The notes under the pieces were generated by a model. That model was not told the origin of the DNA and did no database searches. It saw nothing but the letters and a program-made list of their open reading frames with translations. 64,000 nucleotides of DNA from an uncultured Gammaproteobacteria bacterium (lineage in GTDB: Bacteria > Patescibacteriota > Patescibacteriia > 2-01-FULL-39-33), in contig CAYGKC010000003.1 of the NCBI GenBank assembly GCA_964350585.1, positions 4,678 through 68,677 of the forward strand. The letters are read 5' to 3'. Within the stretch, counting starts at the first letter, position 1, and each line of letters opens with the position of its first letter. The position numbers were made by a program, and so were the translations under genes. Shown here piece after piece: positions 20,401-61,939 of the stretch.

Positions 20401-20568
20401 CAAATCAACTGCTGCTAAACCAGGTCCAATGTTGGGTATTAAATATTGAAACCAACTATTTCTAATATCTTCTACTGTTATCGCTGCTCTAACATTTATC
20501 GGAAAACAAAAATTTAAAAATAAAACTACTGATATCAATCCAATTAATATTTTATTTTTATTTTTCAT
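17476..20568 (-). CDS. large polytopic membrane protein, VirB6/TrbL-like, with long Gly/Ala/Lys-rich and coiled-coil C-terminal extension
   Basis: Signal peptide MKNKNKILIGLISVVLFLNFCFPINVRA. At least six hydrophobic helices lie between aa ~120-440. A ~590-aa hydrophilic tail has GKxGxG repeats and charged coiled-coil-like segments. Confidence 0.45.
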   Translation of the reverse strand: MKNKNKILIGLISVVLFLNFCFPINVRAAITVEDIRNSWFQYLIPNIGPGLAAVDLWSWLSVPDDVVRNDESRIIQYNKWITELESKQPLTKEQEEFLNTAKREKEAIEKSPSGKYVGELEAIDIIINLLAYILYIIFAALGWIITRLMWAMLTVMSYPINVNNTAAVVEGWKVVRNLFNNFFIVLLMVVAIGTILNKKDYHYKAMLPKILIAAILINFSKLFVGIAIDISQVLMLSFASAFANIQGGNIVLSALKLPELTRWQEWTANPMNEGISKNKAGIEMTNIFAALIYAIIVAVIVVIVIVSIIAILVARIVVLLFLTILSPAYVFLKLIKQTEKYSSDWFNNFVKYLTVGPVLVFFLWISFMMMGHGGNSAERALNNNPTRDIRSSLGGQVPDKQEITDLNKGTLSAGLTVEGIINTALVIGALIVCLNFAKGSGVVGANVANSGMSWLQQQAKKPMKFGKSLAKSGLGAGAWVGKKAAGKAGTGSLALASGISKGLGKLSGSEGLTKLGAFGSQWRTDVLEGRRKVRKEKLSKAMGKMGLGSDKAKAAWGEFTNTDLAKNVKAGALAVTATVGTVAGGVATGGLGLGALAVGYMTGGGRLLEMALGDQSSKRQKNREEEGKKIDEASQNTKNIVATSEKGRDLAIDQRIKSDPAYAARVKAEGEISQIDNVQSGKISKGMVPSDFLDFLNGRGAYRSMSSVVKKGKVSDADLAKAKEDFHKETAYTDRQNKIETHKINSETIRADEESRHVTRVEDSLNASKSGKTAKEQERIEAEKNRFLKEYQANIDLNSAKGAIQGKLDLELAAINARTYGLSSISDIENRREQERKKAYENKDSEDTKANEKYTDTIGSVQPQKPQPNLVDTVLDDYKPYAHENWVSQAVAEDATKMKKAIDNLIKVIENGATDADFLTDISRGSFYSTNGQTEMQFKSVKALTESTGAIKTLTDSLAALPRELSGPQAYLVLELKRGIAAYEKGGGDVSKLSTVIALLNEKVGRKTENGPIIDNKTVAEHGSNVIPKK

Positions 20569-26500: not shown

Positions 26501-29500
26501 ATCGTATTCATTGGCTCTGTAATCTTTCGCCATCACTGCGACTGCCTGAACTTTTTGCCATTGATTGATTCTACTCTTGTCAAAACCGGCTGACATAATT
26601 TTATTATTCGGTGACAATAAAAATAATTCTACCGACCCGCCACCTAAATTACTAACAGTGCTTGAAGCAATATATACCCAGCCGGACAAGGCATATTTAC
26701 TTCCTCTTTTAAGATTTATAATATTTTCAGCTCTGGGAACTTCCACAACGGCATAGTCAGCGTTACATGAATCAGCTGACAAAGTACATCTAATTCCCAA
26801 AGAATGTGAACCGCTATTTTTTATGCTATTGCTTCGGCTGAATTCTACGTGTCTGCCATGCTCGCTGTCTTTCTTCCATACATCCACTCCGTCACCTGCT
26901 CCGTCTTCAAATCCCCCGTTTGGCACCAAATTACTGCCCAAGCCTGATTTCAATCGAATAAATTGCGAACAGCCGTCAGAAACACTATTGCAGGTAGGGG
27001 CATTTTTTGTCAGATAAATTTCATTTTCTGTCGCATTGATACTGGCTGTATTACTGGCATTACCTAACCAAATACTGTTAGCTCCGCAATCATCCTTTAT
27101 TTTTTTAATGGTAAAATCATCAAAATAAACATCAGCAGTAGTGCCTGCTTTCAATCGGATTTTTATTGTTGTAGTATTAAAATTTCCAGAGTTAAAATAC
27201 CATATTTTTTCATTCCAGCCTGCACTAAAAGAATATAGTTGGTATTCTTCTTTTTCTTCGCCTCTTATTATTGAAACAATAATTGCTCCATTATTATCTA
27301 AAACGCCAGTGCTTCCCGATAAATAATTGCCTCTAACAAAGAAATTTAACTGATAATTTTTGTCTTTTTCAAGAGGTATGTTTTCAAGCGATACCCAGGT
27401 ATTGGCATCTTCTGCTATGACTGGGGCATTATTTCCGATTATTCTTAAAGCTGAACTAGTACCTCTTCCTTCTCCCGCAACTCTGTAAAAACGGTTATAC
27501 ATATCATAGTTGGCATTATCAAAATTCCAGATTGCAGGAATCCAGTCATATTCATCCTTTTGTTCAAAACCTCCGTTAAACGTTCTAAGCAGATCATTAT
27601 TGTCTATGCAAAGCTCTAAATAACATCCCGAGCTTCCAGGCGTTGAGGTGCAAGATACCTGAGGCGTCCCAAATGAGCTGAATCTACATGTACCATCAAT
27701 AATATTATAAGTACAATTGGTAGATGAAGTGCTGTCACAAGCTGATTGCGTACAGGGTTGAGACATCCTAAGCATTCCGTCCGTGCTTATCTGATGCCAC
27801 TTATAAACAACTTTTCCTTCAAGAGTTAGAGTTTGTGAAGTGGAAGTGATTCTTGTTATTACGTTTGGAGCAAGATGACGCCAAACATTGTTTACCGTAT
27901 CAAGTAACATACTATACCAACGGCATCCTACATTAGTAGAATTACAATTGCCGAAATCCAGAGTGTTCATCAAATATGATTGTTTTTTACCGTCAGATGC
28001 CGAAAAAGTCTGGCAAGTATTGAATCTTGGTTCGCAAGCAGTTGGAAAAGTCCAGATTCTTCTTTCTTCGGTACAATAGCCGTAAGCTTGGCAATTATTA
28101 TCAATATCCTGTTGTAAACACTGTTGTTCATCTGCACAATATTCTCCTCTCATAATACTTCCATCAGGTGAATCTCGCGTTGTGTTATAACCTCCATAAC
28201 CCTGCCTTCTGCAAAATAATTCTGGCACTTTTAAAGTCCAATATGGATTAACCAAACCGTAAAAAATACTATCTGGATTTTCAAAACCGGCAGCAACCTC
28301 TTTTAGTGTATAATTTCTATCGCTTCCATTTGCTTTTATTGCTGCAAACTCCCATCCCACAGGAATAATTCTGTATTTTCTAAGTATAATTATCGATCTT
28401 AAGGGCAATTCACTGTCTAAATTGTCATTTCCCACGGCTGGAGCAAATAATCTTTCTCCTATGCCAAGAGTATCAGACAAAACTTCATATAACTGCTTCT
28501 TTTCTTTTATTGCTGATAGTAGTTTTTGATCAATTACGCAATCAGTTGGACCCGGATTCTTTCTGGTTGAATCAGAACATAAAGCAAGCTTTGTTAAAAT
28601 ATCGTAAGATCCTCCTTCTTTAAAGGAATAATTCTTAAGCTCCGAAAACCTTTCTTTAGCTCCCGTAGCTCCTTCGCTTTGTGGAGATGCCAACGGATTT
28701 AGCAATGCGGATAAATTTGGAAGAGCAAAACCGCTTGAACCGCCGGAACTGCTATCGGAAGAACCTTTGAATAATCCATTTTTAAAATTATTCAACAACT
28801 GAGCAGCTAAAGTATTTAAAAATGTTTCAACAAAATCAAAAATTGTTCCGGTATATATATTATCTTTTTTGCCGACGTTATCAGGATCAACTAAAGCCTT
28901 ATGCAAAGCTTCCCTAACAGTAGTTCCCGGAGTAAGAACTTTGCCGGCAAAATCTTTTAGATCCTTAAATTTGGCCGCCTTTGCAGCTTCATCTTCAGCC
29001 TCTTTGACTTTTTTATTTACATATTCATATGATTTTCCTTGTATTAACAAAAAGGTTGAAATATCGTTTTCTCCAGGTTGAAGAGAATTATTGTACTCAA
29101 AAGAAAAATCAGCTCTTTGGATTGCTGAATTCCAATTTGTCATCATCGTAGAAAAAGTACATCTGACCTGTCTTGGAACTTTATAATTAATGCTTGTTTG
29201 AATCGCTAACCGCATACTTAAATTAGGGCGACATAAATCGACACCATAAGATTGCCCTACTTGATCAATAAAGTCTCCCAAAGCGCTGTCTGCGGCATTT
29301 TCCAAATATGCTCCCCAACCTTCGGTAATAAACAAAGGCTTTTGTCCCTTTCCTCCTGAAGCCACCCAGGTAGCGGTATCTTCGGCCAACTGTCTTGAAA
29401 AGGTACTTAAAGAAACCTTAAAAGCTCCTGCCATTGCTTTTGTAGCCTCCTCCTTTATTGCCTCCCACCATTCTCTTCTCTTTTGATCCCTAATCATCTG

Positions 29501-29845
29501 TTTCATTTGTTTCTCAGCACCAACTTGTGTTGCAGCATCAGTACACTGCTTTTCAGCTTCTGCTAAAGCAGTTGTTCTAGCATGGCATTCAAAACCAACA
29601 AGTGGTACAGGTTCGCATGGAATCGCAGAAGCCAGTATAAGTGATTCGTTACATCTCAATATTAATTCTTCAACAGGAATAGCCCAAGCGTCTGGAAGAA
29701 ATGTCAAACTCTCATCAAACCTTGAAATTGCTAAATTTCTGCTTTTATCTAAAGCTTCAATAAAAGCCTTAGCATTATCAACAAAAATAAAACTAAAAAA
29801 AATAGTTAAAAATAAAGTTAAAATAATTTGATATCTTTTCATCAT
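20579..29845 (-). CDS. giant (3088 aa) secreted Cys-rich multi-domain surface protein with CBM-like beta-sandwich modules and C-terminal PKD-like domain
   Basis: Uninterrupted 9.27-kb ORF with signal peptide MMKRYQIILTLFLTIFFSFIFVDNAKA. Very many Cys residues. Recurring (N)GGFE/NGNFE motifs typical of CBM4/9/22-type modules (LRTFNGGFEQ, VPNGGFEDG, SNGNFES). C-terminal …YTINWGDGSEDS… resembles the PKD-domain WDFGDGS motif. No C-terminal TM. Confidence 0.6.
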   Translation of the reverse strand: MMKRYQIILTLFLTIFFSFIFVDNAKAFIEALDKSRNLAISRFDESLTFLPDAWAIPVEELILRCNESLILASAIPCEPVPLVGFECHARTTALAEAEKQCTDAATQVGAEKQMKQMIRDQKRREWWEAIKEEATKAMAGAFKVSLSTFSRQLAEDTATWVASGGKGQKPLFITEGWGAYLENAADSALGDFIDQVGQSYGVDLCRPNLSMRLAIQTSINYKVPRQVRCTFSTMMTNWNSAIQRADFSFEYNNSLQPGENDISTFLLIQGKSYEYVNKKVKEAEDEAAKAAKFKDLKDFAGKVLTPGTTVREALHKALVDPDNVGKKDNIYTGTIFDFVETFLNTLAAQLLNNFKNGLFKGSSDSSSGGSSGFALPNLSALLNPLASPQSEGATGAKERFSELKNYSFKEGGSYDILTKLALCSDSTRKNPGPTDCVIDQKLLSAIKEKKQLYEVLSDTLGIGERLFAPAVGNDNLDSELPLRSIIILRKYRIIPVGWEFAAIKANGSDRNYTLKEVAAGFENPDSIFYGLVNPYWTLKVPELFCRRQGYGGYNTTRDSPDGSIMRGEYCADEQQCLQQDIDNNCQAYGYCTEERRIWTFPTACEPRFNTCQTFSASDGKKQSYLMNTLDFGNCNSTNVGCRWYSMLLDTVNNVWRHLAPNVITRITSTSQTLTLEGKVVYKWHQISTDGMLRMSQPCTQSACDSTSSTNCTYNIIDGTCRFSSFGTPQVSCTSTPGSSGCYLELCIDNNDLLRTFNGGFEQKDEYDWIPAIWNFDNANYDMYNRFYRVAGEGRGTSSALRIIGNNAPVIAEDANTWVSLENIPLEKDKNYQLNFFVRGNYLSGSTGVLDNNGAIIVSIIRGEEKEEYQLYSFSAGWNEKIWYFNSGNFNTTTIKIRLKAGTTADVYFDDFTIKKIKDDCGANSIWLGNASNTASINATENEIYLTKNAPTCNSVSDGCSQFIRLKSGLGSNLVPNGGFEDGAGDGVDVWKKDSEHGRHVEFSRSNSIKNSGSHSLGIRCTLSADSCNADYAVVEVPRAENIINLKRGSKYALSGWVYIASSTVSNLGGGSVELFLLSPNNKIMSAGFDKSRINQWQKVQAVAVMAKDYRANEYDIRVISGLAETMVYFDDIKLEEINYNSELPSSFTEYNPSKRPAEQLTFLRKAPDYLNCYKKGNIWANSSNLYDILLNQNKLCSKYASVCTSDEVGCNIYKPVNGDPEVPGVAESIDLCPAECAGYQVYKQEKTYFVSSTFVQFIANNVPKYCSAAYAGCDEFTNLDELGRGAEQREYFVRIKACQKPSTDDGTYYTWEGEDTTGYQLKVYKLKRSNKDPSAPCTNISYNTSGIGICNDPDAVSHNLENGLCTKENMASNPDCRQFYDAGGNITYRLLSMTVTISDNCHPYRRTQTEKTLTEAEANCTKGWWNSATNECIYMAMKGEGIMCSASVSGCRAYTGNYGNNIRNVFPISQFSNENLEGWIGAVTSSEATYQGGYSIKNTGGQIKKEVAVHKNRTYMLSFWAKASSTGNFRFESIKFNSSTNPNDYFAVSSLKNDGDINLSMPEITGEWKYFEVGPVFVTWDQPEVENLVFNIGSEKVFLDNIQLKEMRDKVYLVENSWFTPFSCDNDLNDPAGKVNYAQSQTNSSAAYQICYDQNPGTDNHRCVPGNMLGCKAYKTQDGLSAYLKSFANLCRKEAAGCEELIDTHNYDKYQGFIFNPDNSKGYNDQITVRPYEKAYLVNSPAYSCGLQDKGCMALGLPKINQYDEVLGYSTVFLKNDPDRYATDLCAADEVWCEQFAGNNSLYYFKNPRKLCEFRGAGDLAAGWYKKGTDEACMITPDQTFGTGYESVRNKYQPIGPINNLTGSSTIFVINNYSNIKYNGWVGLCQDNKNGCSEYIDPITEIYPNLNYKSSSTLVIESNYLYSSSGGFVTTTAASAFCNIYHPLGNVTTTFYVKAKDDNVKTCKINLSSTSTVVTRAGVYYALSTNVNRSGCNGLVDYKTGCVLFNERSSINYSYDSDSNDELIKERNKYLIFNSSKTYSDYIGNKQQPLKASTDEPKDTSVLLKVLPDRTCKNWLYCTTYKKDSDSTTSTAADFRFQSQDSCLRVGLCEKMDYDDRTCDSFTQKNNEPITTNSSNFQFLTGYSVPNYLSFAEMTQEGQSASVSNGNFESTVSASAEPLGWTMSASSSDLDASGWGPDKYAIERNYLYRKQDAGYLRLHGPNELESEPIDVEKGQEYYLSAWLNTLDLLSTTSAEIWVFEGSECSNQRPGRVISMREGINWTKKTLKFTPSTSTICLKLINFNNSLDQKECNDLLDDKKYNINYGTACRISGSSLFDDISLKPVLNPVPKVSQLNAFTGLTDILTKEESTISRSCRIYPDQNAMSCQYSEDGRFYYGWYGYCLAWDPKNPQVCLQWWPVDEIKGDIVDEYSGGYRERSPLYYCVSTTKETIRVYVETTKVTSGGMGQMLNNLAPGLNLNVLGGETAQYSVFESENSDLINASALFRYPFISKPETNALNKLSTLFSEVLSGFTLGGKPQNRNTFHYAGIVLGVGGNLDGFGLGGGIANVHMGRNNVSHFGADGQDPLGIIFDLLGLNNLENTICSSFLKFLLGDKCETYNGGELEPRIGNLTDNSRWGGWGLAATSWFGGDGAGTALLFPESWDNVENKIMSGGSGDGGGDLIGQIMSMAGLDAGGTGTSLGAKVVTDQDPKYASYFTDPNPSVPGDILGLAWNVKAGGIVLGLLMTGSAYSEFDIHYCNKIVQVATPSGKNKAWVDRLSSGSQFAFSTTTDKYPQFTNPYCLKGLNDGVTAACTNSAINGSTTCREKGNTWDEITGKCYYENMIYSNLGYKFDGYGADYKPFGSLVAPSNNFQNPILWDSRRTDDDYTKQPILWETPNFKTEAPYQPRTGQPVKEEALKNLFAQSYGVWVWKEDNNRWDQGSYDEVKGANWSLPNEYCSGLNPGDRDVNWRFINTALGVPCKIKPLITNIKVSTSSQTLRLSFNVKVDKDQLPLTSYTINWGDGSEDSVAGVKLRQRIDENNPFVMYHYYNPNEMSPNPATITITVKDNWNASASSTISSSLIEAGY

Positions 29846-30879: not shown

Positions 30880-31719
30880 TTATAAAATTTTAGATTTTTT
30901 TAATCCTTGAGTCAGTTTTATCCAATCTATGACTGAAAGATCCTGCGCCCTGACTTTTTCATCAAATCCTTCTCCTGTAATTATCTCTTTTGCCTTTTCG
31001 CTATTGATTTTTAGACCTGCTGAGAAATTGTTATGCAATTGTTTTCTTTTGGAAGAAAATCCCATCCTGGCTATTTTAAAAAGCGTCGATTCATCTATTT
31101 TTTCATCTAAATTTGAAAATAATTTTAATTTAATAACCGCTGAATCCACGTCAGGAATCGGCCAAAAACTGTTTCTGCTGACAAAAAATAATATTTCTGG
31201 TTGACTATAGAACTGGCAAGACAATGACAACAAGCTCATATCTCCGGCCTTGGCGACAATCCTTTTGGCAACTTCTTTCTGCACCATCAAAATCATTTCG
31301 CTTGGCTTCGGTTCCTGCTCAAGCGACAGTCTCAAAAATTTTGAAGTGATATTATACGGCAAATTTGAAACTACTTTATATTTGAAATTATTCAGTCCCG
31401 CTTCTTTCTTATTAAGGCGCAAAATATCTTCCCCGATAATTTCTAATTTTTTTTCAGCTAAAAATTGGACCCTCAAAAATTCCAATATTTTTTTATCCAC
31501 TTCAACGGCAACAACTTTTTTTGCCGCCTTAATCAGATCTTCCGTAAGCACTCCCACTCCCGGTCCGACCTCTACCACTGTTTCATCTTTTTTTATTTCC
31601 GCAGCATCAATAATTTTTTTGACAATATTTTGATCAATTAAAAAGTTCTGCCCCTTCGACTTTGAAGGAGTAATATCGTACTTGGAACAGATTTCTTTGA
31701 TTTGATTTAAGTTAGGCAT
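30880..31719 (-). CDS. rsmA: 16S rRNA (adenine1518/1519-N6)-dimethyltransferase RsmA/KsgA
   Basis: KGQNFLID, SAM-binding VVEVGPGVGVLT, and VVSNLPYNIT motifs. Confidence 0.85.
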   Translation of the reverse strand: MPNLNQIKEICSKYDITPSKSKGQNFLIDQNIVKKIIDAAEIKKDETVVEVGPGVGVLTEDLIKAAKKVVAVEVDKKILEFLRVQFLAEKKLEIIGEDILRLNKKEAGLNNFKYKVVSNLPYNITSKFLRLSLEQEPKPSEMILMVQKEVAKRIVAKAGDMSLLSLSCQFYSQPEILFFVSRNSFWPIPDVDSAVIKLKLFSNLDEKIDESTLFKIARMGFSSKRKQLHNNFSAGLKINSEKAKEIITGEGFDEKVRAQDLSVIDWIKLTQGLKKSKIL

Positions 31720-32914
31720 TAATTTTTTCCAATTTAAATAATAAATATAACAATCCCATTAATCCTCCAAGAATAAATAAGGCGTTCCAGGAAGGTCCAA
31801 ATACAAAAAGTAAAATTATTGCCATAATCATGGCTACTATTTTTCCGATAATAAGCGCCATTTCAAAAAACAAGATCTCTTCCATTTCATCTCCTTTATT
31901 CGCTTCCTTATAAATTTGCGCGACAATGGGAAGAACAATTGATTGCTTGGTGAGCCTTGAATAACTGTCAACAAAAAATATTCCAATAATATTGCGTGAA
32001 AAAAGCCTAAACATCCAGCCAAAAAAGTACAAAACCGAACCGAACTTCAAAATTTTGGCCGGTCCCTTGCTGTCACTAAGTTTGCCGATATATAAAAAAG
32101 CAAGGGTCATTATCATTGTTGCAACTGCAGTTAGTGATCCAAGCTTTAAAAAATCATCAACTATTAAATACATAAAAATCGGCCAAAGAGTCAAAACAAT
32201 AAAGTCTTCACCGAAACCGCAATATGAAAAAAATCTCCGTAAATTTTTTTTGGCGAATAATTTTTTAAAGGTGCCTATATAAGAAAAAGACTCGACAATA
32301 AAAAATTCTTTGGTGATAATCATAGGGATATTCGATAACACCATAATTATTGCCGCTAAAACGAATAATGATTTAAACCCCAAAAATTCCACAAGCACTC
32401 CACCAAAAAAAGACCCTGCAATAAAAACGAAAGATTGCAAAATTGACAAGTTGCTTAACTCTCTTCCTTGTTCTCCATCAACTGAAAATTTAGAAAAATT
32501 GGAATGATAAGCCGGCCAATAAAGAATTTTCCATAAAACATAATTTATGACAGACAAAACTAAGAACCATGGACTAAAATTTATGGCAAAAAGTGAAAAG
32601 TAAAATAGCGCTGTAAAAACGCAGCCAAGCGCAATCGTATATTCATAGCCTAGCCTCTTTGCGATTTTGCCACCTAATGGCACCATAAAAAAATAAGCGA
32701 CATAGACTGCCAAATAAAAAAACAAGACCCCCAACAACGAATCCCTCAAATTATATCTTTGAGCAAAAAACAGATACAAAAAAACAGGCTCAAATATAGC
32801 CACCATTGATAAGGCAAAATTAAGAATTATTGTCGAAGCGTAAAGCTCTCTTATTTGCCTTTGAATTTGGCAAGGGAAAAATGAAGTGATGTAGGCTAAT
32901 ATTTTTGCAAACAT
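31712..32914 (-). CDS. polytopic membrane transporter, MFS-like
   Basis: ORF of 400 aa with ~12 hydrophobic helices. Its 3' end overlaps the rsmA start by 8 nt. Confidence 0.45.
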   Translation of the reverse strand: MFAKILAYITSFFPCQIQRQIRELYASTIILNFALSMVAIFEPVFLYLFFAQRYNLRDSLLGVLFFYLAVYVAYFFMVPLGGKIAKRLGYEYTIALGCVFTALFYFSLFAINFSPWFLVLSVINYVLWKILYWPAYHSNFSKFSVDGEQGRELSNLSILQSFVFIAGSFFGGVLVEFLGFKSLFVLAAIIMVLSNIPMIITKEFFIVESFSYIGTFKKLFAKKNLRRFFSYCGFGEDFIVLTLWPIFMYLIVDDFLKLGSLTAVATMIMTLAFLYIGKLSDSKGPAKILKFGSVLYFFGWMFRLFSRNIIGIFFVDSYSRLTKQSIVLPIVAQIYKEANKGDEMEEILFFEMALIIGKIVAMIMAIILLFVFGPSWNALFILGGLMGLLYLLFKLEKINA

Positions 32915-32916
32915 TA

Positions 32917-33939
32917 TTATTTGGCTTTCTTATTTTTATACTTTGCGAATTTCTTTCTTTTTATAATTCTATATAAAAGGTATAACAAATGATCCACTGA
33001 CATATCCCATGCCCCAACATACTCCGTTAATTCTTTTTCGGGTGCAAAGCCCGTTTTAAATCTCGTTACTCCCGGCCATTTATTTTCATTTGCTCCCCAA
33101 AAATCATAAAATTCGCACCACCTTGACTTTGCCCAAGCTATGCTTTCCCACTGAAGAAGATAAGGCGCCATTTTATCTCGATAACCATAATCCGATGCGC
33201 CATGAAGATAAACGCACCACTTGCCACTTTTGGCAACCAAATTTGCCGCAATCACCTTTTGTTCATATTTGGCAACAAACAATTTTATTTTCCCTCCCTC
33301 ACCAAGGACTTTGAGCATTTGTCTGTAATATTTTTTACTATGTACCTGTATCTTGTCTCTTTTGGCCGTAAGTTGCATCAGCCTCCAAAAGTCTTCAAAA
33401 TAATTTTCTCCCTCATCAACTGCAACGCAATGTTTCTGCGCCACCTTGATATTATATCTTGTTTTGGCTTTCATTTGCGCCAGGATTTCAGCCTCGCTTT
33501 TAGTCAGATCCAAAATTAAAGTGCTCTGGGGCTGGACTTCTCCCGCACTTTCCAGACCTAAATTCTTTAAAATTGTTTTTTTACCATCATCTACTAAAGG
33601 CGGATCCATCCGCACGAAAAGTACCCGCTTTTTTTTTGCCAGTTTATTAATTTCGAGAAGTAGTTTTTTAAATTCCAGTGATAAAATATCATTGACAATA
33701 GGACCTCTTGGAATGTACAGATACTTTTTTTTCAATGGCAACTTATAAATTATACCCTGCGCGCCTGACTTAATGTTGCCACTTTCATCAACTAAGGCAA
33801 TTCTAAAAACTTTACGTCCGATTGATTCCTGGAAAATTCCCCAATCCCAACTTTGAAGCAATCCCCCATCACAGGAATTTTCGGAAATAAAATTCTCCCA
33901 TTTTGCCTTCCATGAGTTGTCGCAAATTATTGCTTTCAT
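32917..33939 (-). CDS. FemAB-family peptidoglycan interpeptide-bridge aminoacyltransferase (FemX-like)
   Basis: Two GNAT-like halves. C-terminal …YLHGASDYGYRDKMAPYLLQWESIAWAK…YDFWG matches the FemABX (PF02388) conserved core. Confidence 0.65.
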   Translation of the reverse strand: MKAIICDNSWKAKWENFISENSCDGGLLQSWDWGIFQESIGRKVFRIALVDESGNIKSGAQGIIYKLPLKKKYLYIPRGPIVNDILSLEFKKLLLEINKLAKKKRVLFVRMDPPLVDDGKKTILKNLGLESAGEVQPQSTLILDLTKSEAEILAQMKAKTRYNIKVAQKHCVAVDEGENYFEDFWRLMQLTAKRDKIQVHSKKYYRQMLKVLGEGGKIKLFVAKYEQKVIAANLVAKSGKWCVYLHGASDYGYRDKMAPYLLQWESIAWAKSRWCEFYDFWGANENKWPGVTRFKTGFAPEKELTEYVGAWDMSVDHLLYLLYRIIKRKKFAKYKNKKAK

Positions 33940-34125
33940 TAAATTATTCCTAAATATTTTATTAATTATAACAAAAATATAGCCATTAAAAAAGCCGCCT
34001 TTGTATATAGATCTCCGGCGGCCAATTTACCTTTTCAGCAAGATTAAACATTCTCGCCAATTATTATAAAGAGTAATTATATGCCAAAATTTATCAATTT
34101 TTTAATGTCTAATTTAAGCCAATTT

Positions 34126-34154
34126 TCAATGCTTCAGACAGTCTGAAGCATTGA
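34126..34154. terminator. 29-nt perfect palindrome TCAATGCTTCAGAC-A-GTCTGAAGCATTGA, likely leuS terminator hairpin (copy 1 of 2)
   Basis: Perfect 14-bp stem with 1-nt centre, 4 nt downstream of the leuS stop. Identical 29-mer at 61954..61982. Confidence 0.55.
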
Positions 34155-34157
34155 ATT

Positions 34158-37100
34158 TTAAATGACAAAACTGATCAGTTTATTGGGAACAAAAATCGTC
34201 TTTTTTATTTGAGAGTTTTCTAGATATTTTTTTACATTCGGCTCATTTTTGGCGGCTTCTACGGCTTGAGCTTCTGCTGTTCCGGCAGGAAGACTTACCT
34301 TTCCCCTGACTTTGCCGTTTATCTGCACCACTATCTCAACCTTTTCGTCTTTTATTTTACTTTCATCGTAGCTTGGCCAAGACTCTTTAAATATGCTTTC
34401 TTTATTTCCCAGCTTTGACCATAATTCTTCCGCCATATGAGGGGCAAAGGGTGAAAGGATGATGAGAAATTTTTGATAGAATTCTTTTGAGACTGATTCT
34501 GCAAACTTATTTACTAGAATCATCATCGCAGAAATTGCGGTATTAAATCTCATGCTCTCAATATCTTCACCGACTTTTTTTATGGTTTTATTTAATAAAA
34601 TATCTAAACCATTATCAGATTGGATTCCCGCCTGCCTGCGCAGGCAGGCCTTCGCGGGAATAACAGTAGCAGGGTCATTACCCATATTCCAAACTTTTTC
34701 CAAAAATCTATCAATACCAACTATGCCTTTTGTGTTCCACGGTTTTACATCTTCAAGCGGGCCCATAAACATTTCATACATTCTAAAAGCATCTGCGCCA
34801 TGTTCAGCTACCACTTCATCAGGATTAACAACATTGCCCCTGGACTTTGACATTTTTTCACTGTCTTCGCCAAGGATCAATCCTTGATTAACAAGTTTTG
34901 CAAACGGCTCTTCCTGCGGAACATATCCCAAATCAAATAAAACCATATTCCAAAACCTGGCATATAGAAGATGAAGAACGGCATGTTCCGCGCCTCCGAC
35001 ATAAACATCCACCGGCAACCAATATTTTAATTTTTCAAGATCGGCAAAGGCATTTTTATTTTGCGGATCAAGATATCTAAGCCAATACCAAGATGAGCCA
35101 GCCCATTGAGGCATGGTGTTTGTTTCTCTTTTGGCATCACCTCCGCAATAAGGACATTTTATCTCAACCCACTCTTTTATATTGGCAAGCGGAGACTCGC
35201 CTGTTCCGGATGGTTCAAATTTATCAACTTCCGGCAAAGTCAAAGGCAATTCATTTTCGGATACTGGAAACCAGCCGTTACTTCGATTTTGTAAAATCAA
35301 ATGGAGTATTTCGGGAATTTCTTTTTCCTGAAAATGTCCAAAGCCCTGCCATAATTCCTTACTCCAGCCGGCTGGCAGAATTTCTTTAGTTTCCATGAAA
35401 ATATAAGGATCATCTTCAGAAAAAATTACGTTTTTACGCTTCACCAATTCGCTAACCTTATTCCAATCTGTCTTTTGGGCTGAAAAATTTTTAAGTGATT
35501 CAATGTCTGATCCAGCCCATTTCTCTTTTAAAGCATCGTAATCTTCATCAGAACTTTTATCCAAAACGGGCGCCACCAATATTAATTGGCCTATTTTCTT
35601 ATTATTTTTTTGGATTAAATTAAGTGCCGCCTTAGCTCCCAAACTATGTCCAATAATTATATCGTTTTCATCCATTTGTTCTATATAAGGATTTAATTCT
35701 TCAATCCATTTTTCCAAAACAGGATGTTGCGCTGTAGTCATTGTGGGATTAAAAACTTCAAAACCCTGCTGCTGCAACTTTTCTTTCAGCCAAGAAAACC
35801 AATTACCGTCACCGTTTCCTTCAAAACCATGAATCATTAAAACTTTTCGTTTTTTGTTTTTGCATTTTTCACAATATATCAAAGGAATCGGCTCGCCCCA
35901 ATATCTTTGCCTGGAAAAAACCCAGTCACGTAATTTATAATTAACCGCCTTTTTACCATGACCATTTTCTTCAAGCCATGCAGTCATTTTGCCAATTACT
36001 TCCGATGGTTTTAAGCCGTTTAAAAATTCTGAATTAATCATTACGCCATTATCAATATCGGTGAAAGCCTTTTCGCCTTTTACTAACTCATCCCAATACC
36101 ATTTATGGCTTGGCAAATTAATAAATTCAGATATTTTATTTTTTGCTATCCATTCGCCTTGATGGTGTTCAACATCAATATCATTTGATCTCTTTCCATC
36201 TTGCAACTCAATATAAAAACATAATGATTCAGCATATCGATTAATACCTTTATGTTCGGCATAATAATTATTATGCGTCTCTACGCTTATTTGCTTTATT
36301 GATTTAATATTTTCATAACCAGTTTCTTCTTTTGTTTCTCTTACTGCAGCTTCCTCCGCAGTTTCTCCCTCTTCTATTCCACCCATTACAAATGATCTCC
36401 AATTGTGTTCTTGCCAATCCAAACAATAATAAGAATCATCCTGCCAGTGTTTAACAATAACATAAACGCTTTTTCTTCTAACTGTTTCTTTTTCCGGTTT
36501 GATTTTATCCTTATCCATTATGGCACCAAAAAGTGGCGCTACAACTTGTACTATTTCCAAACCAAACTTCTTGGCGAATTCCCAGTCTCTTTCGTCATGA
36601 GCCGGCACAGCCATAATTGCTCCGGTCCCATAAGAAGCCAGGACATAATCAGAAATCCAAATCCGAATCTCTTTTCCATTTACGGGATTAACCGCCTTGA
36701 TGCCTTTTAATTCAACTCCTGTTTTATCTTTTGCCAAATCAGTCCTTTCCAAATCGGATTTATTTTTTGCCTGAACAATATATTTGTTCACCTCATCAAA
36801 ATTTTTAATTTTATCTTTTAAATTCTGAATCAATTCATGCTCCGGCGAAAGCACCATATAAGTGGCGCCAAATAAAGTATCAGGACGCGTTGTATAGACA
36901 CGAATTGTCATCTCGGGCTTGCCTGATTCAGAATTCTGGATTCCCGCCTTCGCGGGAATGACAGAAGAATCTGCTGATGCCATAGAATCATTCGCTCCGC
37001 TTTCAACGACTGCAAAATCGACTTCAGCTCCCTCGCTTCTGCCGATCCAATTCCTTTGTTGGGATTTGATTGATTCCGGCCAGTCTAACTTATCCAATCC

Positions 37101-37721
37101 TTTTAATAGCCTATCAGCGTAATTTGTAATTCTAAGCATCCATTGGCGCATATCTTTTTTTACAACTTCAGTTCCGCATCTGTCGCATTTGCCATCTTTA
37201 ACTTCTTCATTGGCAAGACCAGTCTTGCATGAGGGACAAAAATTTATGGGCACGGTAGCTTCATACGCCAAGCCCTTTTTAAATAATTGCAAAAATATCC
37301 ACTGCGTCCATTTATAATAATCCGGATCAGTCGTATCGATTTCCCTTGACCAATCATATGAAAATCCAAGCGATTGAATTTGTCGTTTAAAGGTTGCAAT
37401 GTTTTTGGCAGTTGTTTCGCGCGGATGAGTGCCGGTTTTTATGGCGTAATTTTCTGCAGGCAAACCGAATGCATCCCAACCCATAGGATGTAAAACATTA
37501 AAGCCTTTCATCCGAAAATATCGGGAATATATATCTGTGGCAGTATAGCCTTCAGGATGGCCAACATGAAGCCCTGCTCCAGAAGGATATGGAAACATAT
37601 CCAAAATATATTTTTTGGGTTTTTTATCAAAATCAACGGCTTTATTCAATTCCTTTTTCTCCCAAAAATCCTGCCATTTATTTTCGCCGTCATTTTTTAA
37701 AAATTCTTTATAACTATGCAT
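34158..37721 (-). CDS. leuS: leucyl-tRNA synthetase with in-frame inserted Nudix hydrolase domain and RBBP9/YdeN-type serine hydrolase domain
   Basis: HIGH motif [14 protein letters not shown] and KMSKS motif; editing CP1 (TTRPDT…AVPAHDERD) and Zn motifs CPSCK…CDRCG. At 1187 aa it is ~330 aa longer than typical bacterial LeuRS. Complete Nudix box [23 protein letters not shown] sits at aa ~445-467 (nt ~36100-36480). Alpha/beta hydrolase with GHSLGA nucleophile elbow, Asp (SEDDPY) and His (GFGHF) is at aa ~621-812 (nt ~35286-35861). Confidence 0.9.
34622..34665. repeat. GC-rich palindromic repeat, long variant (GATTCCCGCC-[18-nt nested palindrome]-TTCGCGGGAAT-aACAg), in frame inside leuS
   Basis: Arms ATTCCCGC/GCGGGAAT flank a nested palindrome gcctgcctgc/gcaggcaggc. 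Translated as …[16 protein letters not shown]… in LeuRS. Confidence 0.8.
36939..36964. repeat. GC-rich palindromic repeat GATTCCCGCCTTCGCGGGAATGACAG, in frame inside leuS editing-domain region
   Basis: 8-bp arms ATTCCCGC/GCGGGAAT. Translated as …[14 protein letters not shown]… within a ~25-aa expansion between [10 protein letters not shown] and [10 protein letters not shown]. Antisense reading gives the WIPAFAGMT-type spurious ORF at 36919..37122. Confidence 0.8.
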
Positions 37722-37822: not shown

Positions 37823-38803
37823 ATGTTACACTTTTTGAAGGAGAAACAACATCAAACAGTGGAGGAAAATGCCATGGCAAGATACGCAATAATTTCTGAC
37901 ATGCATTCCTCCACTGGCTATATCATGGAGGAGGCGGAAGTGTTAGCAACAAGATTCGGCAAATGGCTTCTCGGGCCGTTTTACCGATCAATGAAAGAGG
38001 AGATAAAGGATCACCATCATGTTCGCTCTACCTTAGAGAGAATCAAACAGGGCGGTTATGATGGCATCATCGGCTTGGGAGACTATTCGCAAACAGGAGA
38101 GGCAGAAGAAGCCGAAGAGGCTATGGATCTTTTAAATCAGTACTCTAAAGGAGCGCCTCTATATTTGGCTCCAGGAAACCATGACATAAAGTCGTGGGTT
38201 AAATTCGGTGATAGGTGGTCTGAATATTTAAGCGAGGAACAGATAGATTCTTACAAAAAAATATTCGGTCCGCTTTATGGAGCAAAAGAGCTTAAAGGAA
38301 ATGTCATATTAATTTGGCTTATGTCTGAGCCCTTTATGTTTCAATGGCATAAGCATGATCACCTTTCATCAAGGCAATACCGGCTCCTTAACAACATTCT
38401 CAAGGCTCAACTTCAGTTCTTGCAAGAAACACTAAACTGCAAGCAATGGGTTGATAAAAAAATCATTCTGTCTTTGCATGATCCGGGAGCACTGTTGTCT
38501 AGCCATTTAAAAGGAGCACTTTGGCAACATAGAAACAGAATTTTACTTACCCTAACCGGACATATTCATGCAGGTTGGCTTATGAGAATAATGTGCTTGG
38601 TCCATCCTATTCTTTGGCCAAAACTACTATGGCAAATGCGCAGGTATAAAGCGTGGCTTATCCCTTCCGTTTGGGGCATTGCTTTGCCGGATACCTTTTG
38701 GATGGCAGGAGCAGGTTGGGCTGAACTTGATATAAGTGACAGTGGCAACAAACTACTGTTCCATTTCACTAATTCCAAAAAAATAAGAGGTTTTCGTTTA
38801 TAA
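37823..38803 (+). CDS. calcineurin-like metallophosphoesterase (MPP) family protein
   Basis: MPP motifs ISDMH (DxH), GLGDYS (GD), GNHD, and GHIHAGW (GHxH). Paralog of the next gene. Confidence 0.6.
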   Translation: MLHFLKEKQHQTVEENAMARYAIISDMHSSTGYIMEEAEVLATRFGKWLLGPFYRSMKEEIKDHHHVRSTLERIKQGGYDGIIGLGDYSQTGEAEEAEEAMDLLNQYSKGAPLYLAPGNHDIKSWVKFGDRWSEYLSEEQIDSYKKIFGPLYGAKELKGNVILIWLMSEPFMFQWHKHDHLSSRQYRLLNNILKAQLQFLQETLNCKQWVDKKIILSLHDPGALLSSHLKGALWQHRNRILLTLTGHIHAGWLMRIMCLVHPILWPKLLWQMRRYKAWLIPSVWGIALPDTFWMAGAGWAELDISDSGNKLLFHFTNSKKIRGFRL

Positions 38804-38833
38804 AACCGTTCTCAAGAAAGAGAACGGTTTTTA
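38804..38833 (+). terminator. rho-independent terminator (CCGTTCTC-aagaaa-GAGAACGG + TTTTTATT)
   Basis: Perfect 8-bp stem and U-run immediately after the stop at 38803. Confidence 0.6.
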
Positions 38834-38882
38834 TTGACAATAAAGGAGATTTAGTTGATAATATAGTTGCTAAATAAATTTT

Positions 38883-39878
38883 ATGATGCAATTTTTAATA
38901 ATTGCCGACATGCATTTTGCAATTGAAAAAGCAAAAAAAGATAATCGGCAGATTTTACATAAATTAGGCGATATGATCCCCACGCTTAACCAGCGACGTA
39001 TGAGTGGAGCATCATCGCATATACAAAAAACTTTCAGGGAAGCTGCAAATTACGGACCGTACGAAGCGATTATTGATCTAGGAGACAGAACACACGGAAC
39101 ACCGGACAATACTGGACTAATATGCAGTCATAGTGTAAATGAAGCTTTTGAAGCAATAAAATTGCGCAAAGAATCATTTCCCGAAATTCCAGATAATTTA
39201 GTTTGCCAAATACCAGGCAACCATGATTTGGGTTGGGCGCTTTCATCTTTCGCGCGCAAAGGAGACGGCTATCTAAAAAAGAGCTTAGCCAGCTATCGGA
39301 AAATATACGGTCCCCTATTTTGGATGAAAGAATTAACCTCAGAAATTAACGTCATTGGAATATCTTCTGAACCTTTTCTTTATGATTACAACCAGCCTAA
39401 AAAATTCAAAAATGGCGAAAATGAAAAAGAAATTAAAACCAGAATTCTCCTTCTTAAAAATGAACTTGCTCTTCAGCTTTCCTTTATAAAAAATTCCCTG
39501 CAAGAGATAAAACAAAAAAATAAAAAATTCATACTTGCAGTACATGAACCCTTTGCCATGCTTTCTCCTAAACTTCAGGCATTAATAGAACCTTACAAAG
39601 AAAGGCATTTAGTTACTCTCGCAGGCCATGTTCATGCCAGATGGCTGATGAATATTTTAAACTTCACGATGCCTCAAAATAGTCTGCCAATATTCAAACG
39701 TTATAAAATACAAATGATTCCTTCAGTATGGGGCATAATGATTCCTTCAATTCCTTGGGGAATCGGAGCCGGTTGGGCAAGGATAGTCATTGAAGATGAT
39801 GGGCATATCAATCTTTACATTTACAGAACAAACAAAAAAAAGTTCCAAGGCATACGCCTTGGAAAATCTTGTTTATAA
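38883..39878 (+). CDS. calcineurin-like metallophosphoesterase family protein (tandem paralog)
   Basis: Motifs IADMH, DLGDRT, GNHD, and GHVHARW, with the same spacing as the preceding gene. Confidence 0.6.
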   Translation: MMQFLIIADMHFAIEKAKKDNRQILHKLGDMIPTLNQRRMSGASSHIQKTFREAANYGPYEAIIDLGDRTHGTPDNTGLICSHSVNEAFEAIKLRKESFPEIPDNLVCQIPGNHDLGWALSSFARKGDGYLKKSLASYRKIYGPLFWMKELTSEINVIGISSEPFLYDYNQPKKFKNGENEKEIKTRILLLKNELALQLSFIKNSLQEIKQKNKKFILAVHEPFAMLSPKLQALIEPYKERHLVTLAGHVHARWLMNILNFTMPQNSLPIFKRYKIQMIPSVWGIMIPSIPWGIGAGWARIVIEDDGHINLYIYRTNKKKFQGIRLGKSCL

Positions 39879-44309: not shown

Positions 44310-44334
44310 GATTCCCGCCTTCGCGGGAATGACA
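44310..44334. repeat. GC-rich palindromic repeat GATTCCCGCCTTCGCGGGAATGACA (intergenic copy between porA and porB)
   Basis: Same 8-bp inverted arms as the two leuS copies. Lies 9 nt downstream of the porA stop. Confidence 0.8.
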
Positions 44335-51540: not shown

Positions 51541-51624
51541 GCCGATATGGTGGAATTGGTAGACACGCTAGCTTCAGGAGCTAGTGGGAGTAATCCTATA
51601 AGGGTTCAAATCCCTTTATCGGCA
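51541..51624 (+). tRNA. tRNA-Leu (anticodon CAG), class II
   Basis: GCCGATATGGTGGAATTGGTAGACACGCTAGCTTCAGGAGCTAG… closely matches the canonical bacterial tRNA-Leu D-arm and anticodon arm (loop CTTCAGGAG gives CAG). Long variable arm, T-arm GGGTTCAAATCCC, acceptor GCCGATA/TATCGGC. Confidence 0.8.
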
Positions 51625-61455: not shown

Positions 61456-61471
61456 AAATATTTCTTAAAAT

Positions 61472-61939
61472 ATGGACAATAATAAAAAATTGGAAAAAGA
61501 GCTAGGAACTTTTAAAAGTATGATCGCCTCAGGACCTGTTATTATAAAAAATTTTAACGGGATCCAAAAAACCTTATTAGTAAAACATGGCAACAAACCG
61601 CTCGAAGAATTAAAATGGAAATTCTGCGGTGGAAAAATTTTACCTGGCCTCAGTCTTGAGGAAAATGCAATTAGAAAAGCCAGGGAAGAAATAGGAGTGC
61701 AAGTTAAAATAATAAGATCTCTAAATCCTCTCATTCTTTGGCAGGAAGTCCCCGAAAGCGGAACTGAAAAGCCGGAAGCCACTGTTTTAATCCATTATCT
61801 TGCAGAAATAGAAGAAGATCCGCAAAAAGGAGAAAAAATATTAGATATGGAATGGTTTGATGTAAACAATCTGCCATTCGATAGCGCTCCAAACATCAAG
61901 CCGGTAATCGAGAATTATTTAAACCAATTAAGCATATAA
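61472..61939 (+). CDS. Nudix hydrolase
   Basis: Nudix box GGKILPGLSLEENAIRKAREEIGV (Gx5Ex7REUxEExGU). 155 aa. Confidence 0.75.
   Translation: MDNNKKLEKELGTFKSMIASGPVIIKNFNGIQKTLLVKHGNKPLEELKWKFCGGKILPGLSLEENAIRKAREEIGVQVKIIRSLNPLILWQEVPESGTEKPEATVLIHYLAEIEEDPQKGEKILDMEWFDVNNLPFDSAPNIKPVIENYLNQLSI

Follow-up and report, generated by a model that had tools for sequence, protein, structure and literature searches.

Nudix and YdeN/RBBP9-type serine-hydrolase domains nested within the leucyl-tRNA synthetase of a Patescibacteria bacterium

Aminoacyl-tRNA synthetases (aaRSs) are among the best-studied enzymes, and in bacteria they are considered poor in accessory catalytic domains. A module with hydrolytic or modifying activity is physically joined to the synthetase, or encoded beside it, in the editing and trans-editing systems (CP1, INS/YbaK, AlaX and DTD), as it is in IleRS with a GNAT domain (NCBIfam NF040702). 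The small serine hydrolases of the YdeN/RBBP9 family (PF06821) are largely orphans as regards physiological substrates; one member, RBBP9, is reportedly a valacyclovir-activating enzyme, valacyclovir being the L-valyl ester of a nucleoside analogue. Within leucyl-tRNA synthetase (LeuRS) itself, the leucine-specific domain is present in the T. thermophilus and E. coli enzymes but is not universal. A 2026 survey of domain insertions found the CP1 editing domain (PF13603) never to be host to another domain (PMC13114784).

The leuS gene described here lies on the minus strand at 34158..37721 of the window, by which we mean the whole 64,000-nucleotide stretch of DNA analysed. It starts with ATG and encodes 1187 amino acids without an internal stop. 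The first-pass annotation had called it a LeuRS with all canonical elements, which the uninterrupted frame, the motifs and the score against NCBIfam leuS_bact (TIGR00396) confirm: 1045.6 bits against a curated equivalog cut-off of 548.4, in three stretches broken by the inserts. We take the protein to be the housekeeping enzyme of its Patescibacteria (CPR) host; it aligns to T. thermophilus (Tt) LeuRS in five collinear blocks (E 4e-215). The N-terminal catalytic core (aa 1-238; 37008..37721, minus strand like every protein segment below; Tt 10-236) holds the class I signature HVGH (52-55) and the first Zn module (C162/C165/C179/C182, in CPSC162 and CDRC179). It is followed by the N-terminal part of CP1 (aa 270-394; 36540..36914; PF13603; Tt 240-362), and by the C-terminal part of CP1 with the return to the core (aa 557-620; 35862..36053; Tt 379-442), which carries RQRYWGEP and CEKC (617-620), the first CxxC of the second Zn knuckle (CEKC617/CPYC856). 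The C-terminal half of the catalytic core (aa 816-1004; 34710..35276) supplies CPYC (856-859) and KMSKS (956-960), and the anticodon-binding and C-terminal tRNA-binding domains (aa 1033-1187; 34161..34625; PF08264; Tt 637-876) complete the chain. In the T. thermophilus alignment the leucine-specific domain is absent before KMSKS, with no counterpart of Tt 593-636; its site has 9 residues in all 120 homologues compared but one, which has 43. A perfect 14-bp, terminator-like hairpin (34125..34155) stands directly 3' of the stop codon. Elsewhere in the window there is a tRNA-Leu(CAG) gene (51541-51624).

The editing motifs of CP1 are intact, with TTRPDT at 277-282 and AHDERD at 374-379, the latter closing a 15-residue stretch (365-379). 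The PF13603 match scores 185 bits, and the Thr-rich motif and the Asp are nearly invariant across homologues. Because both the synthetic and the CP1 editing motifs are intact, the synthetase itself is predicted to function normally. We considered the inserts as compensation for a dead CP1 and rejected this, as the editing motifs are intact in at least 90% of homologues and there is thus no lost editing function to replace. An AF2 model of the whole chain reaches a pLDDT of 90.1 and a pTM of 0.82, with both inserts above 84.

The first insert (aa 395-556; 36054..36539) is a Nudix domain that lies within a loop of CP1. Its Pfam NUDIX match (PF00293) covers aa 438-530 with 48.1 bits (cut-off 21.1), the 23-residue Nudix box (aa 447-469; nt 36315-36383) fits GX5EX7REUXEEXGU, and AF2 gives the domain a pLDDT of 94.3. 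Foldseek matches it to 2AZW (E 2e-10, TM 0.75/0.82) and yields 529 PDB matches at E<=1e-3. These sources agree with one another, and with conservation, on the in-frame Nudix fold with an intact box that had been read from the sequence. Its location had been misjudged: the domain does not follow the editing domain but lies inside it, since the PF13603 match stops at about position 144 of 185 in the model, which insert-free homologues span from 1 to 185. It takes the place of the Tt loop 363-378. A stand-alone Nudix gene noted elsewhere in the window (61472..61939) does exist, with 63.7 bits, and was rejected as the source of the insert, the similarity being a generic match of 32% over 88 aa.

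Nudix enzymes cleave pyrophosphate linkages, so the suggestion that the domain hydrolyses aminoacyl-adenylates would be chemically atypical. The insert has an aromatic pair in its X-loop, Y486/Y487, and a [YF][YF] pair stands at +17/+18 after the box in nearly all embedded copies; an X-loop tyrosine at this position after the box is the ApnA-hydrolase tyrosine (PMC5389931). The Foldseek neighbours include the Ap4A hydrolases 3I7U and 4MPO, RppH and Ndx1. With such ApnA-hydrolase/RppH-like enzymes (Aquifex 3I7U, Chlamydia CT771 4MPO, E. coli RppH 4S2X and T. thermophilus Ndx1 1VC8), which rank among its best Foldseek and NCBIfam neighbours, the insert shares the fold, the box and the X-loop aromatic about 17 residues on, at an identity of 16-22% and with NudI, MutT and NudB equally close. 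All NCBIfam equivalog scores are far below their cut-offs (best RppH score 29.8 bits against 118), and a profile search of the PDB gives generic matches, which makes any subfamily assignment weak. An ApnA-type role would fit the X-loop pair and the structural neighbours. Two extra conserved motifs, W..F..GG and A.HK..NR, are specific to the LeuRS/CP1-associated Nudix clade.

The second insert is a serine hydrolase of the YdeN/RBBP9 type (aa 621-815; 35277..35861), identified by Pfam, a PDB profile search, invariant residues and its exact junction. Ser_hydrolase (PF06821) matches aa 627-798 with 73.6 bits (cut-off 22), and the family profile finds YdeN (1UXO) at 6.5e-42 and RBBP9 at about 1e-25. 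The triad consists of S693 (GHSLGA; nt 35643-35645), D771 (SEDDPY) and H796 (GFGHF); together with H631-G632, the HG oxyanion motif, these residues are invariant in alignment A3 and at least 90% conserved over 36 domains. The first reading of an alpha/beta hydrolase of about 190 residues with a complete Ser-Asp-His triad is borne out. That reading placed it after RQRYWGEP; it is indeed downstream of that motif, and we refine the site to the loop between the CEKC of the second Zn knuckle and the next Gly-Trp, equivalent to Tt 442-444. B. subtilis YdeN and human RBBP9 (2QS9) are lid-less small alpha/beta hydrolases with the same HG, GHSLG, Asp and His; whereas known family members are free-standing and about 190 aa long, this domain is nested within a tRNA synthetase. 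The alpha/beta-hydrolase gene that adjoins the window's stand-alone Nudix gene (60790-61455) was rejected as its source, having no similarity to the embedded hydrolase.

Neither insert is an intein, as had already been noted. The inserts run A395...K556|A and K621...N815|G; neither begins with Cys/Ser/Thr or ends in HN+Cys/Ser/Thr (...GEK|A and ...RSN|G), and a Pfam scan of the protein gives no Hint or intein match. Chimeric assembly, or frame-restoring errors that joined separate genes, is a negligible explanation. In a single distant relative, hydrolase and Nudix do form a separate, complete gene (P0190), 15 nt downstream of the 3' end of leuS; among orthologues, adjacent separate genes as envisaged by the first-pass annotation extend to this single case, and the gene has a CP1 remnant of its own between the two domains. 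Against an artefact, the identical protein is found on four contigs and the same architecture in dozens of independent assemblies from NCBI, ENA, JGI and Logan. Relatives at 71%, 68% and about 50% identity carry both inserts, again in independent assemblies, and a syntenic orthologue with a core identity of about 80% cleanly lacks both. Both inserts have clean, in-frame junctions, and AF2 folds the whole chain confidently, so that the misassembly feared earlier is ruled out. Foreign composition was also considered and set aside as uninformative, GC3 of the inserts (0.24 and 0.30) being only slightly below that of the core (0.34).

The architecture had been described as unfamiliar for LeuRS. 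It is not a one-off, being common in public Patescibacteria data, and in the literature searched we found no relevant description of LeuRS with a Nudix domain, LeuRS with a hydrolase or a free-standing CP1. Among the 120 closest LeuRS proteins, 34 have the Nudix domain, 22 the hydrolase and 8 both. The strict Nudix box is kept in 29 of the 34 embedded copies and GxSxG in 22 of 24 hydrolase copies; HG, GHSLG, D and H are at least 90% conserved. The hydrolase occurs at three LeuRS loops (sites A, B and C), sometimes in two copies or in tandem with Nudix. Some relatives have two or three Nudix domains plus a hydrolase with all motifs intact, one of them three Nudix domains and a hydrolase. In a neighbour-joining tree the embedded hydrolases are polyphyletic among free-standing ones, and where one protein has two copies, each is closer to other sequences than to its partner, showing repeated independent insertion into LeuRS. 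The inserts are patchy among close relatives and both are missing from the syntenic orthologue, so they are dispensable. They change more quickly than the core: identity to P0002 is about 55% in the inserts and 85% in the core. A full-protein scan of genome contigs returned mostly ordinary LeuRS of Spirochaetes and Clostridia.

The catalytic residues are all retained in the window protein and in most relatives, across 25-70% identity. This argues against the inserts being catalytically dead structural decorations such as interaction or solubility modules, a reading we hold to be very improbable even though degenerate copies do occur (P0045, those at site A of P0075 and P0079, and 5 of the 34 Nudix boxes). 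We instead favour, at a probability of roughly 40% and on the strength of sequence and models, that the inserts are tethered accessory hydrolases with acceptor-end esters and nucleotide by-products as their substrates. Both hydrolases sit in surface loops on the editing-domain side of LeuRS, a position from which they might clean up the chemistry that arises around the acceptor end of tRNA-Leu and the adenylate site. For the serine hydrolase the proposed role is that of an esterase, with aminoacyl or acyl esters, carried by the terminal adenosine or by nucleotides, as its substrates. The Nudix domain would be a pyrophosphohydrolase of adenine-containing polyphosphates, either ApnA-type by-products or nucleoside-diphosphate-X groups. 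Catalytic activity, substrates and the coupling to LeuRS or tRNA-Leu are what we infer here. Circumstantial support for a tRNA-directed esterase comes from the valacyclovir-activating RBBP9, from P0190 adjoining leuS, and from a hydrolase relative (P0253) that has a tRNA-binding domain of the MetRS-C type fused to it (TIGR00399, which scores 122.7 bits and passes its cut-off).

The main rival, which we hold to be only somewhat less likely, is that LeuRS is merely a carrier with no mechanistic coupling to its passengers: small house-cleaning enzymes (Nudix, the PF06821 hydrolase and Ham1) would be lodged in permissive loops of an essential protein that is expressed constitutively, and would serve the general metabolite pool. 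The loops are simply permissive, as a GIY-YIG domain, a Y1 transposase, palindromic elements and a Ham1 ITPase occupy the same LeuRS loops in relatives, some of this clearly selfish DNA. The window protein itself has two short in-frame insertions from a palindromic repeat element. One is part of a 31-aa linker insertion at the core/CP1 boundary (site A; 36915..37007), where the element at 36941-36958 encodes VIPAKAGIQ (aa 254-262) and AF2 predicts disorder (pLDDT <50 at aa 251-264). The other is a second, longer copy at 34625-34660 (aa 1020-1034) in the short insertion of site D (aa 1005-1032; 34626..34709), with a pLDDT of about 67. Relatives also have an insert of about 130 aa at site C, for which a PDB match was not found and ASCH matches are weak (4 of 9 members, best E 0.03). 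A mere carrier would further accord with the patchy distribution and faster evolution of the inserts, and with Ham1, Nudix and hydrolase genes that form house-cleaning operons or fusions without LeuRS (L094; P0216, P0218 and P0246); the window has its own neighbouring hydrolase and Nudix genes (60790-61939).

The choice of host speaks against mere carriage. In a search of 1.84 billion representatives, the best 150 of 1916 matches include 27 long fused hosts; each of these is a LeuRS or a fragment of one, with no other aaRS among them, and the insertions into LeuRS arose several times independently at different loops. Free-standing paralogues moreover retain the CP1 remnant, one such module adjoins leuS (seen once only), and one hydrolase relative has a tRNA-binding domain. 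Two further apparent links were rejected: the free-standing hydrolases P0122 and P0124 are downstream of fpg and not linked to leuS, and the CP1-remnant+Nudix protein P0148 lies in a house-cleaning neighbourhood and has no tRNA-gene link.

Proteins of about 277 aa that consist of a CP1 remnant and Nudix are found on Firmicutes-type contigs. In the CP1-like proteins that stand alone the Thr-rich editing motif is gone, with, for example, DRPELI or NRPEAM in place of TTRPDT. We know of no earlier description of a free-standing CP1 homologue. The relevant passages of a 2024 review mention none. It is a doubtful yet conceivable extension of tethered hydrolases that the PF06821 hydrolase, Nudix and a CP1-type scaffold binding the CCA end make up an unrecognised clean-up system for the tRNA acceptor end, either built into LeuRS or existing on its own, beside leuS and in Firmicutes. 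The alpha/beta-hydrolase would then represent a new class of enzyme for deacylating (acyl-)aminoacyl-tRNA, the Nudix domain would strip pyrophosphate-linked groups from the tRNA end or from dinucleotides made by LeuRS, and the forms that stand alone would be the first trans-acting factors derived from CP1.

The same free-standing modules, which keep a CP1-like CCA-end scaffold with the editing threonines lost, might also suit protection embedded in the target. The domains would here counter agents directed against LeuRS or the 3' end of tRNA, such as inhibitors mimicking aminoacyl-adenylates, pyrophosphorylated CCA ends made by toxic RelA/SpoT homologues, or the N-acetyl-aminoacyl-tRNA that GNAT toxins produce. 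Such a role would account for inserts that are accessory and patchily distributed. Functions tied to conflict are typically gained and lost in a patchy manner; some relatives carry a weak NTase-like insert (aminoglycoside nucleotidyltransferase-type), and the NCBIfam IleRS-with-GNAT model offers a precedent for an aaRS with a modifying domain. We nevertheless regard such protection as improbable: PADLOC gives only weak, generic Nudix matches (PDC-S07), no toxin or immunity genes adjoin leuS in the neighbourhoods checked, and the idea draws on general toxin biology.

Across an entire lineage, LeuRS is decorated with as many as four additional hydrolase domains, spread over several loops. Should tethered hydrolases act on tRNA-Leu or on LeuRS by-products, they would add one or two new folds to translational quality control and give the orphan YdeN/RBBP9 family a substrate class. 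If not, the protein is a clear natural case of nested insertion, with an enzyme in CP1 and CP1 itself in a Rossmann fold. Variants with and without the inserts at one orthologous locus are useful for studying how essential proteins tolerate or recruit inserts in ultra-small genomes.

Compared with canonical LeuRS (T. thermophilus 1H3N/2BYT and E. coli 4AQ7), the window protein shares the class Ia core, HIGH, KMSKS, ZN1, the Thr-rich motif and Asp of CP1, and the anticodon-binding and C-terminal domains. It differs in the enzyme domains of about 160 and 195 aa in the loops equivalent to Tt 363-378 and 442-444, in having two short repeat-derived peptides and in lacking the leucine-specific domain. 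In contrast to the 2026 survey (PMC13114784), CP1 here does host another domain, a Nudix. As with other aaRS editing and trans-editing modules, free-standing paralogues exist. Nudix and alpha/beta-hydrolase are not among the known folds for aminoacyl-tRNA editing (CP1, INS/YbaK, AlaX, DTD, PheRS B3/B4 and ThrRS N2), and if the inserts deacylate tRNA they would represent a new kind of editing module.

The single leuS ORF (34158..37721, minus strand, ATG start, 1187 codons) encodes what is, by its profile match, a bacterial-type leucyl-tRNA synthetase (LeuRS), and the protein shows the features that define bacterial LeuRS, the Nudix superfamily and PF06821. It scores 1045.6 bits against the NCBIfam leuS_bact model (cut-off 548.4), with the match broken into three stretches, and Thermus thermophilus LeuRS (1H3N) aligns to it in five collinear blocks (phmmer, E 4e-215). 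The canonical motifs listed in the first-pass annotation were all located: HVGH for HIGH (aa 52-55), the Zn knuckles CPSC162/CDRC179 and CEKC617/CPYC856, TTRPDT (aa 277-282) and AHDERD (aa 374-379) of the CP1 editing domain, and KMSKS (aa 956-960). The leucine-specific domain is missing from this protein and from all 120 relatives examined. With its catalytic and editing motifs unbroken, and as the syntenic housekeeping copy, the synthetase should be functional.

Alignment to 1H3N leaves four stretches without a counterpart: site A (aa 239-269, facing 3 residues in T. thermophilus) and site D (aa about 1005-1032, facing a short loop) hold short repeat-derived peptides, while site B (aa 395-556, facing residues 363-378) holds a Nudix domain and site C (aa 621-816, facing residue 443) a serine hydrolase. 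Both enzyme assignments had been made on first reading and are confirmed by Pfam matches above the curated thresholds, with NUDIX at aa 438-530 (48.1 bits, cut-off 21.1, E 1.5e-12) and Ser_hydrolase PF06821 at aa 627-798 (73.6 bits, cut-off 22, E 2.3e-20). The Nudix had been placed after the editing domain; it actually lies within CP1, where the PF13603 match ends at about position 144 of the 185 in the model, and in insert-free relatives the match runs unbroken from 1 to 185 through the same position. With the Nudix inside CP1, the insertion is nested at two levels. The hydrolase interrupts the second Zn knuckle between its first CxxC and the following Gly-Trp, reading CEKC-[K621...N815]-GWFPVSE here versus CEKC-GWVPVPE in the closest insert-free orthologue. 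Where the window protein has the Nudix, the insert-free P0011 has an 8-residue loop, TGGDVSKE. Intein identity, already doubted in the first-pass annotation, was rejected, as neither insert has intein boundary residues or a Hint match.

In the AlphaFold2 model of the whole LeuRS (121-sequence alignment, mean pLDDT 90.1, pTM 0.82), both enzyme inserts fold with confidence, in blocks of 84-98 pLDDT. Modelled by itself, the Nudix segment reaches pLDDT 94.3 and matches 2AZW best (E 2e-10), followed by the Ap4A hydrolases 3I7U and 4MPO, NudI, RppH, Ndx1 and MutT. Of the 34 embedded homologues, 29 keep a strict Nudix box, and the X-loop carries a conserved aromatic pair at the position occupied by the tyrosine of ApnA hydrolases (PMC5389931). 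A profile built from the hydrolase together with free-standing relatives matches Bacillus subtilis YdeN (1UXO, 6.5e-42) and human RBBP9 (about 1e-25); in its alignment S693, D771, H796 and the HG motif do not vary, and they are at least 90% conserved across 36 embedded and free copies. Judged from these residues, both domains are most likely active hydrolases, and we consider it improbable that they are dead decorations.

The first-pass annotation had allowed for a chimeric assembly, and our survey of relatives shows that this LeuRS is neither a singleton nor an artefact. An artefact is extremely improbable, given that the identical 1187-aa protein is present on four contigs and that both inserts recur, in independent assemblies, in P0002 (71% identity), P0003 (68%) and several homologues near 50%. 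Among the best 120 LeuRS homologues, whose named members are Patescibacteria such as Buchananbacteria and Komeilibacteria, the Nudix occurs in 34, the hydrolase in 22 and the two together in 8. The taxonomic placement of the window is based on how these homologues are named. The distribution is patchy, with sister LeuRS differing in content on a crude neighbor-joining (NJ) tree of the cores without support values. The window and the genomes of P0003 and P0011 have the gene order Metallophos<-leuS->FemAB->MFS->KsgA in common; P0003 has both inserts, whereas P0011, with about 80% core identity, has neither, so at this one orthologous locus the inserts are polymorphic, present in some genomes and absent from others. 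This block (31712-33939 plus 37823-39878 in the window, also seen at loci L095 and L097) is unchanged whether leuS holds inserts or not; it encodes a FemAB-family aminoacyl-tRNA-dependent transferase, an MFS transporter and, in the window, two metallophosphoesterase paralogues. A perfect 14-bp hairpin, TTCAATGCTTCAGAC AGT GTCTGAAGCATTGAA (34125-34155), lies 3 nt past the leuS stop codon, is terminator-like on both strands and is followed by promoter-like hexamers for femAB. Elsewhere in the window are two very large minus-strand ORFs (20579-29845, 3088 aa; 17476-20568, 1030 aa), whose syntenic giant counterparts in relatives match CBM_4_9 and TSP3.

The peptides at sites A and D derive from a palindromic REP-like element, TTCCCGC(N)GCGGGAA, present in frame within leuS at 36941-36958 (site A, translated as VIPAKAGIQ) and 34625-34660 (site D, a 15-residue peptide, with a nested extra palindrome), and in a third, intergenic copy at 44312-44329; shuffled sequence gave zero copies. 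Both peptides are predicted to be disordered or low-confidence, with AlphaFold2 pLDDT <50 at aa 251-264 and about 67 at aa ~1010-1030. Similar element-derived peptides occur in the same two LeuRS loops of relatives. The element resembles the in-frame Rickettsia palindromic elements.

The insert pattern is much broader than the single protein first noticed. Among LeuRS relatives the hydrolase is found at sites C, B (within CP1) and A, twice within one protein (P0036, P0046), as a tandem pair at site A (P0168) or in tandem with a Nudix at site B (P0177). In a domain NJ tree without support values, embedded hydrolases are polyphyletic relative to free-standing ones, the window clade falls together with the free-standing P0121-P0124, and paired copies within one protein are not mutual closest relatives. 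The most elaborate LeuRS, at metagenome loci, include one of ~1490 aa (L102:3762-8261) with three Nudix domains, two in tandem, and one hydrolase, and one of ~1330 aa (L099:4287-8291) with two Nudix domains and one hydrolase; their extra Nudix copies occupy a fourth loop, at the position of window aa ~208-212, and all Nudix boxes and GHSLG motifs are intact. Other inserts are Ham1/ITPase at site A (P0248, P0178), a GIY-YIG nuclease domain within CP1 (P0061/P0063), an IS200-type Y1 transposase domain at site A (P0078), a weakly matching aminoglycoside-NTase-like domain (P0050, P0041) and, at site C, a conserved ~130-aa domain with a GxKxxExR motif and weak ASCH matches (P0022/23/31/52/59/68/90/113/117). 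In P0119 the CP1 segment is duplicated at site B. A house-cleaning guild may be piggy-backing on permissive LeuRS loops, since Ham1 is likewise inserted, selfish DNA is tolerated in the same loops, and the inserts can be dispensed with, are patchily distributed and evolve faster; Ham1, Nudix and hydrolase genes also form operons and fusions without LeuRS, and in P0216, P0218 and P0246 the hydrolase is joined to Nudix domains of other subfamilies.

A full HMMER pass of the hydrolase segment against 1.84 billion representatives gave 1916 matches, and in the best 150 of these every long fused host, 27 in total, is a LeuRS or a fragment of one, with no other synthetase. In P0304 (639 aa), a Met-start ORF, a hydrolase is fused to the C-terminal LeuRS half; this could reflect either a split synthetase or an error of gene calling. 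Closest to the window Nudix segment are ~277-aa proteins, one in an annotated Firmicutes/Bacillota MAG, whose alignment to the window LeuRS begins at residue ~321 in CP1, spans the Nudix and ends at residue ~569 (36% identity, E 2e-32); these are excised units of the C-terminal half of CP1 plus Nudix that have lost the Thr-rich editing motif. Proteins of this kind on Firmicutes-type contigs, P0138-P0154 (e.g. L005:7001-7834; clusters of up to 75 member sequences), nest the same Nudix in a degenerate C-terminal CP1 half, with DHH, Nudix, APH, Ham1, GNAT, S51 peptidase, UvrD and CYTH genes as neighbours. P0190 (452 aa, a complete gene at L091:677-2035) comprises hydrolase, CP1 remnant and Nudix, and begins 15 nt past the natural C-terminus of a leuS (L091:3-662) 45% identical to the window protein, the single locus found where a free-standing module adjoins leuS; downstream lie a 61-aa ORF, Sua5/YrdC and an MFS gene. 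P0253 (L093:5640-6542), from the Patescibacteria-like MAG GCA_030688765.1, fuses a PF06821 hydrolase to a MetRS-C-terminal/Trbp111-type tRNA-binding domain (PF01588; 122.7 bits against TIGR00399, cut-off 116.65).

In valacyclovir a nucleoside analogue is esterified with L-valine. Its activation has been reported for RBBP9 (Shenoy et al. 2020, as cited in PMC7730578). This report, LeuRS as the sole long fused host among those best 150 matches, repeated independent insertion into several CP1-side loops, the CP1 scaffold kept by free-standing paralogues, the module adjoining leuS, the fusion to a tRNA-binding domain and the X-loop aromatic pair lead us to favour, narrowly over piggy-backing and at a probability of about 0.4, functional coupling of the inserted domains to LeuRS or tRNA-Leu. 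The Nudix is less likely to act on aminoacyl-adenylates, as first suggested, than on pyrophosphate-linked species, given established Nudix chemistry. A protective or repair variant, in which the inserts would detoxify LeuRS inhibitors or mend toxin-modified tRNA 3' ends, is unlikely, and PADLOC matches are weak.

Literature searches found no publication on Nudix or YdeN-type hydrolase domains embedded in LeuRS, or on free-standing CP1-derived proteins, and a 2026 domain-insertion survey has CP1 (PF13603) never hosting another domain (PMC13114784). Sequences with this architecture are already public, labelled merely 'leucine--tRNA ligase', 'class I tRNA ligase family protein' or 'alpha/beta fold hydrolase', and we found no published description of it. 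Neither insert belongs to the known aminoacyl-tRNA editing folds. In the window, an S33-type alpha/beta hydrolase gene (60790-61455) directly upstream of a stand-alone Nudix gene (61472-61939), neither closely related to the LeuRS inserts, mirrors the arrangement of the Ham1-Nudix-hydrolase-[Nudix+hydrolase] operon at L094 (4132-7014).
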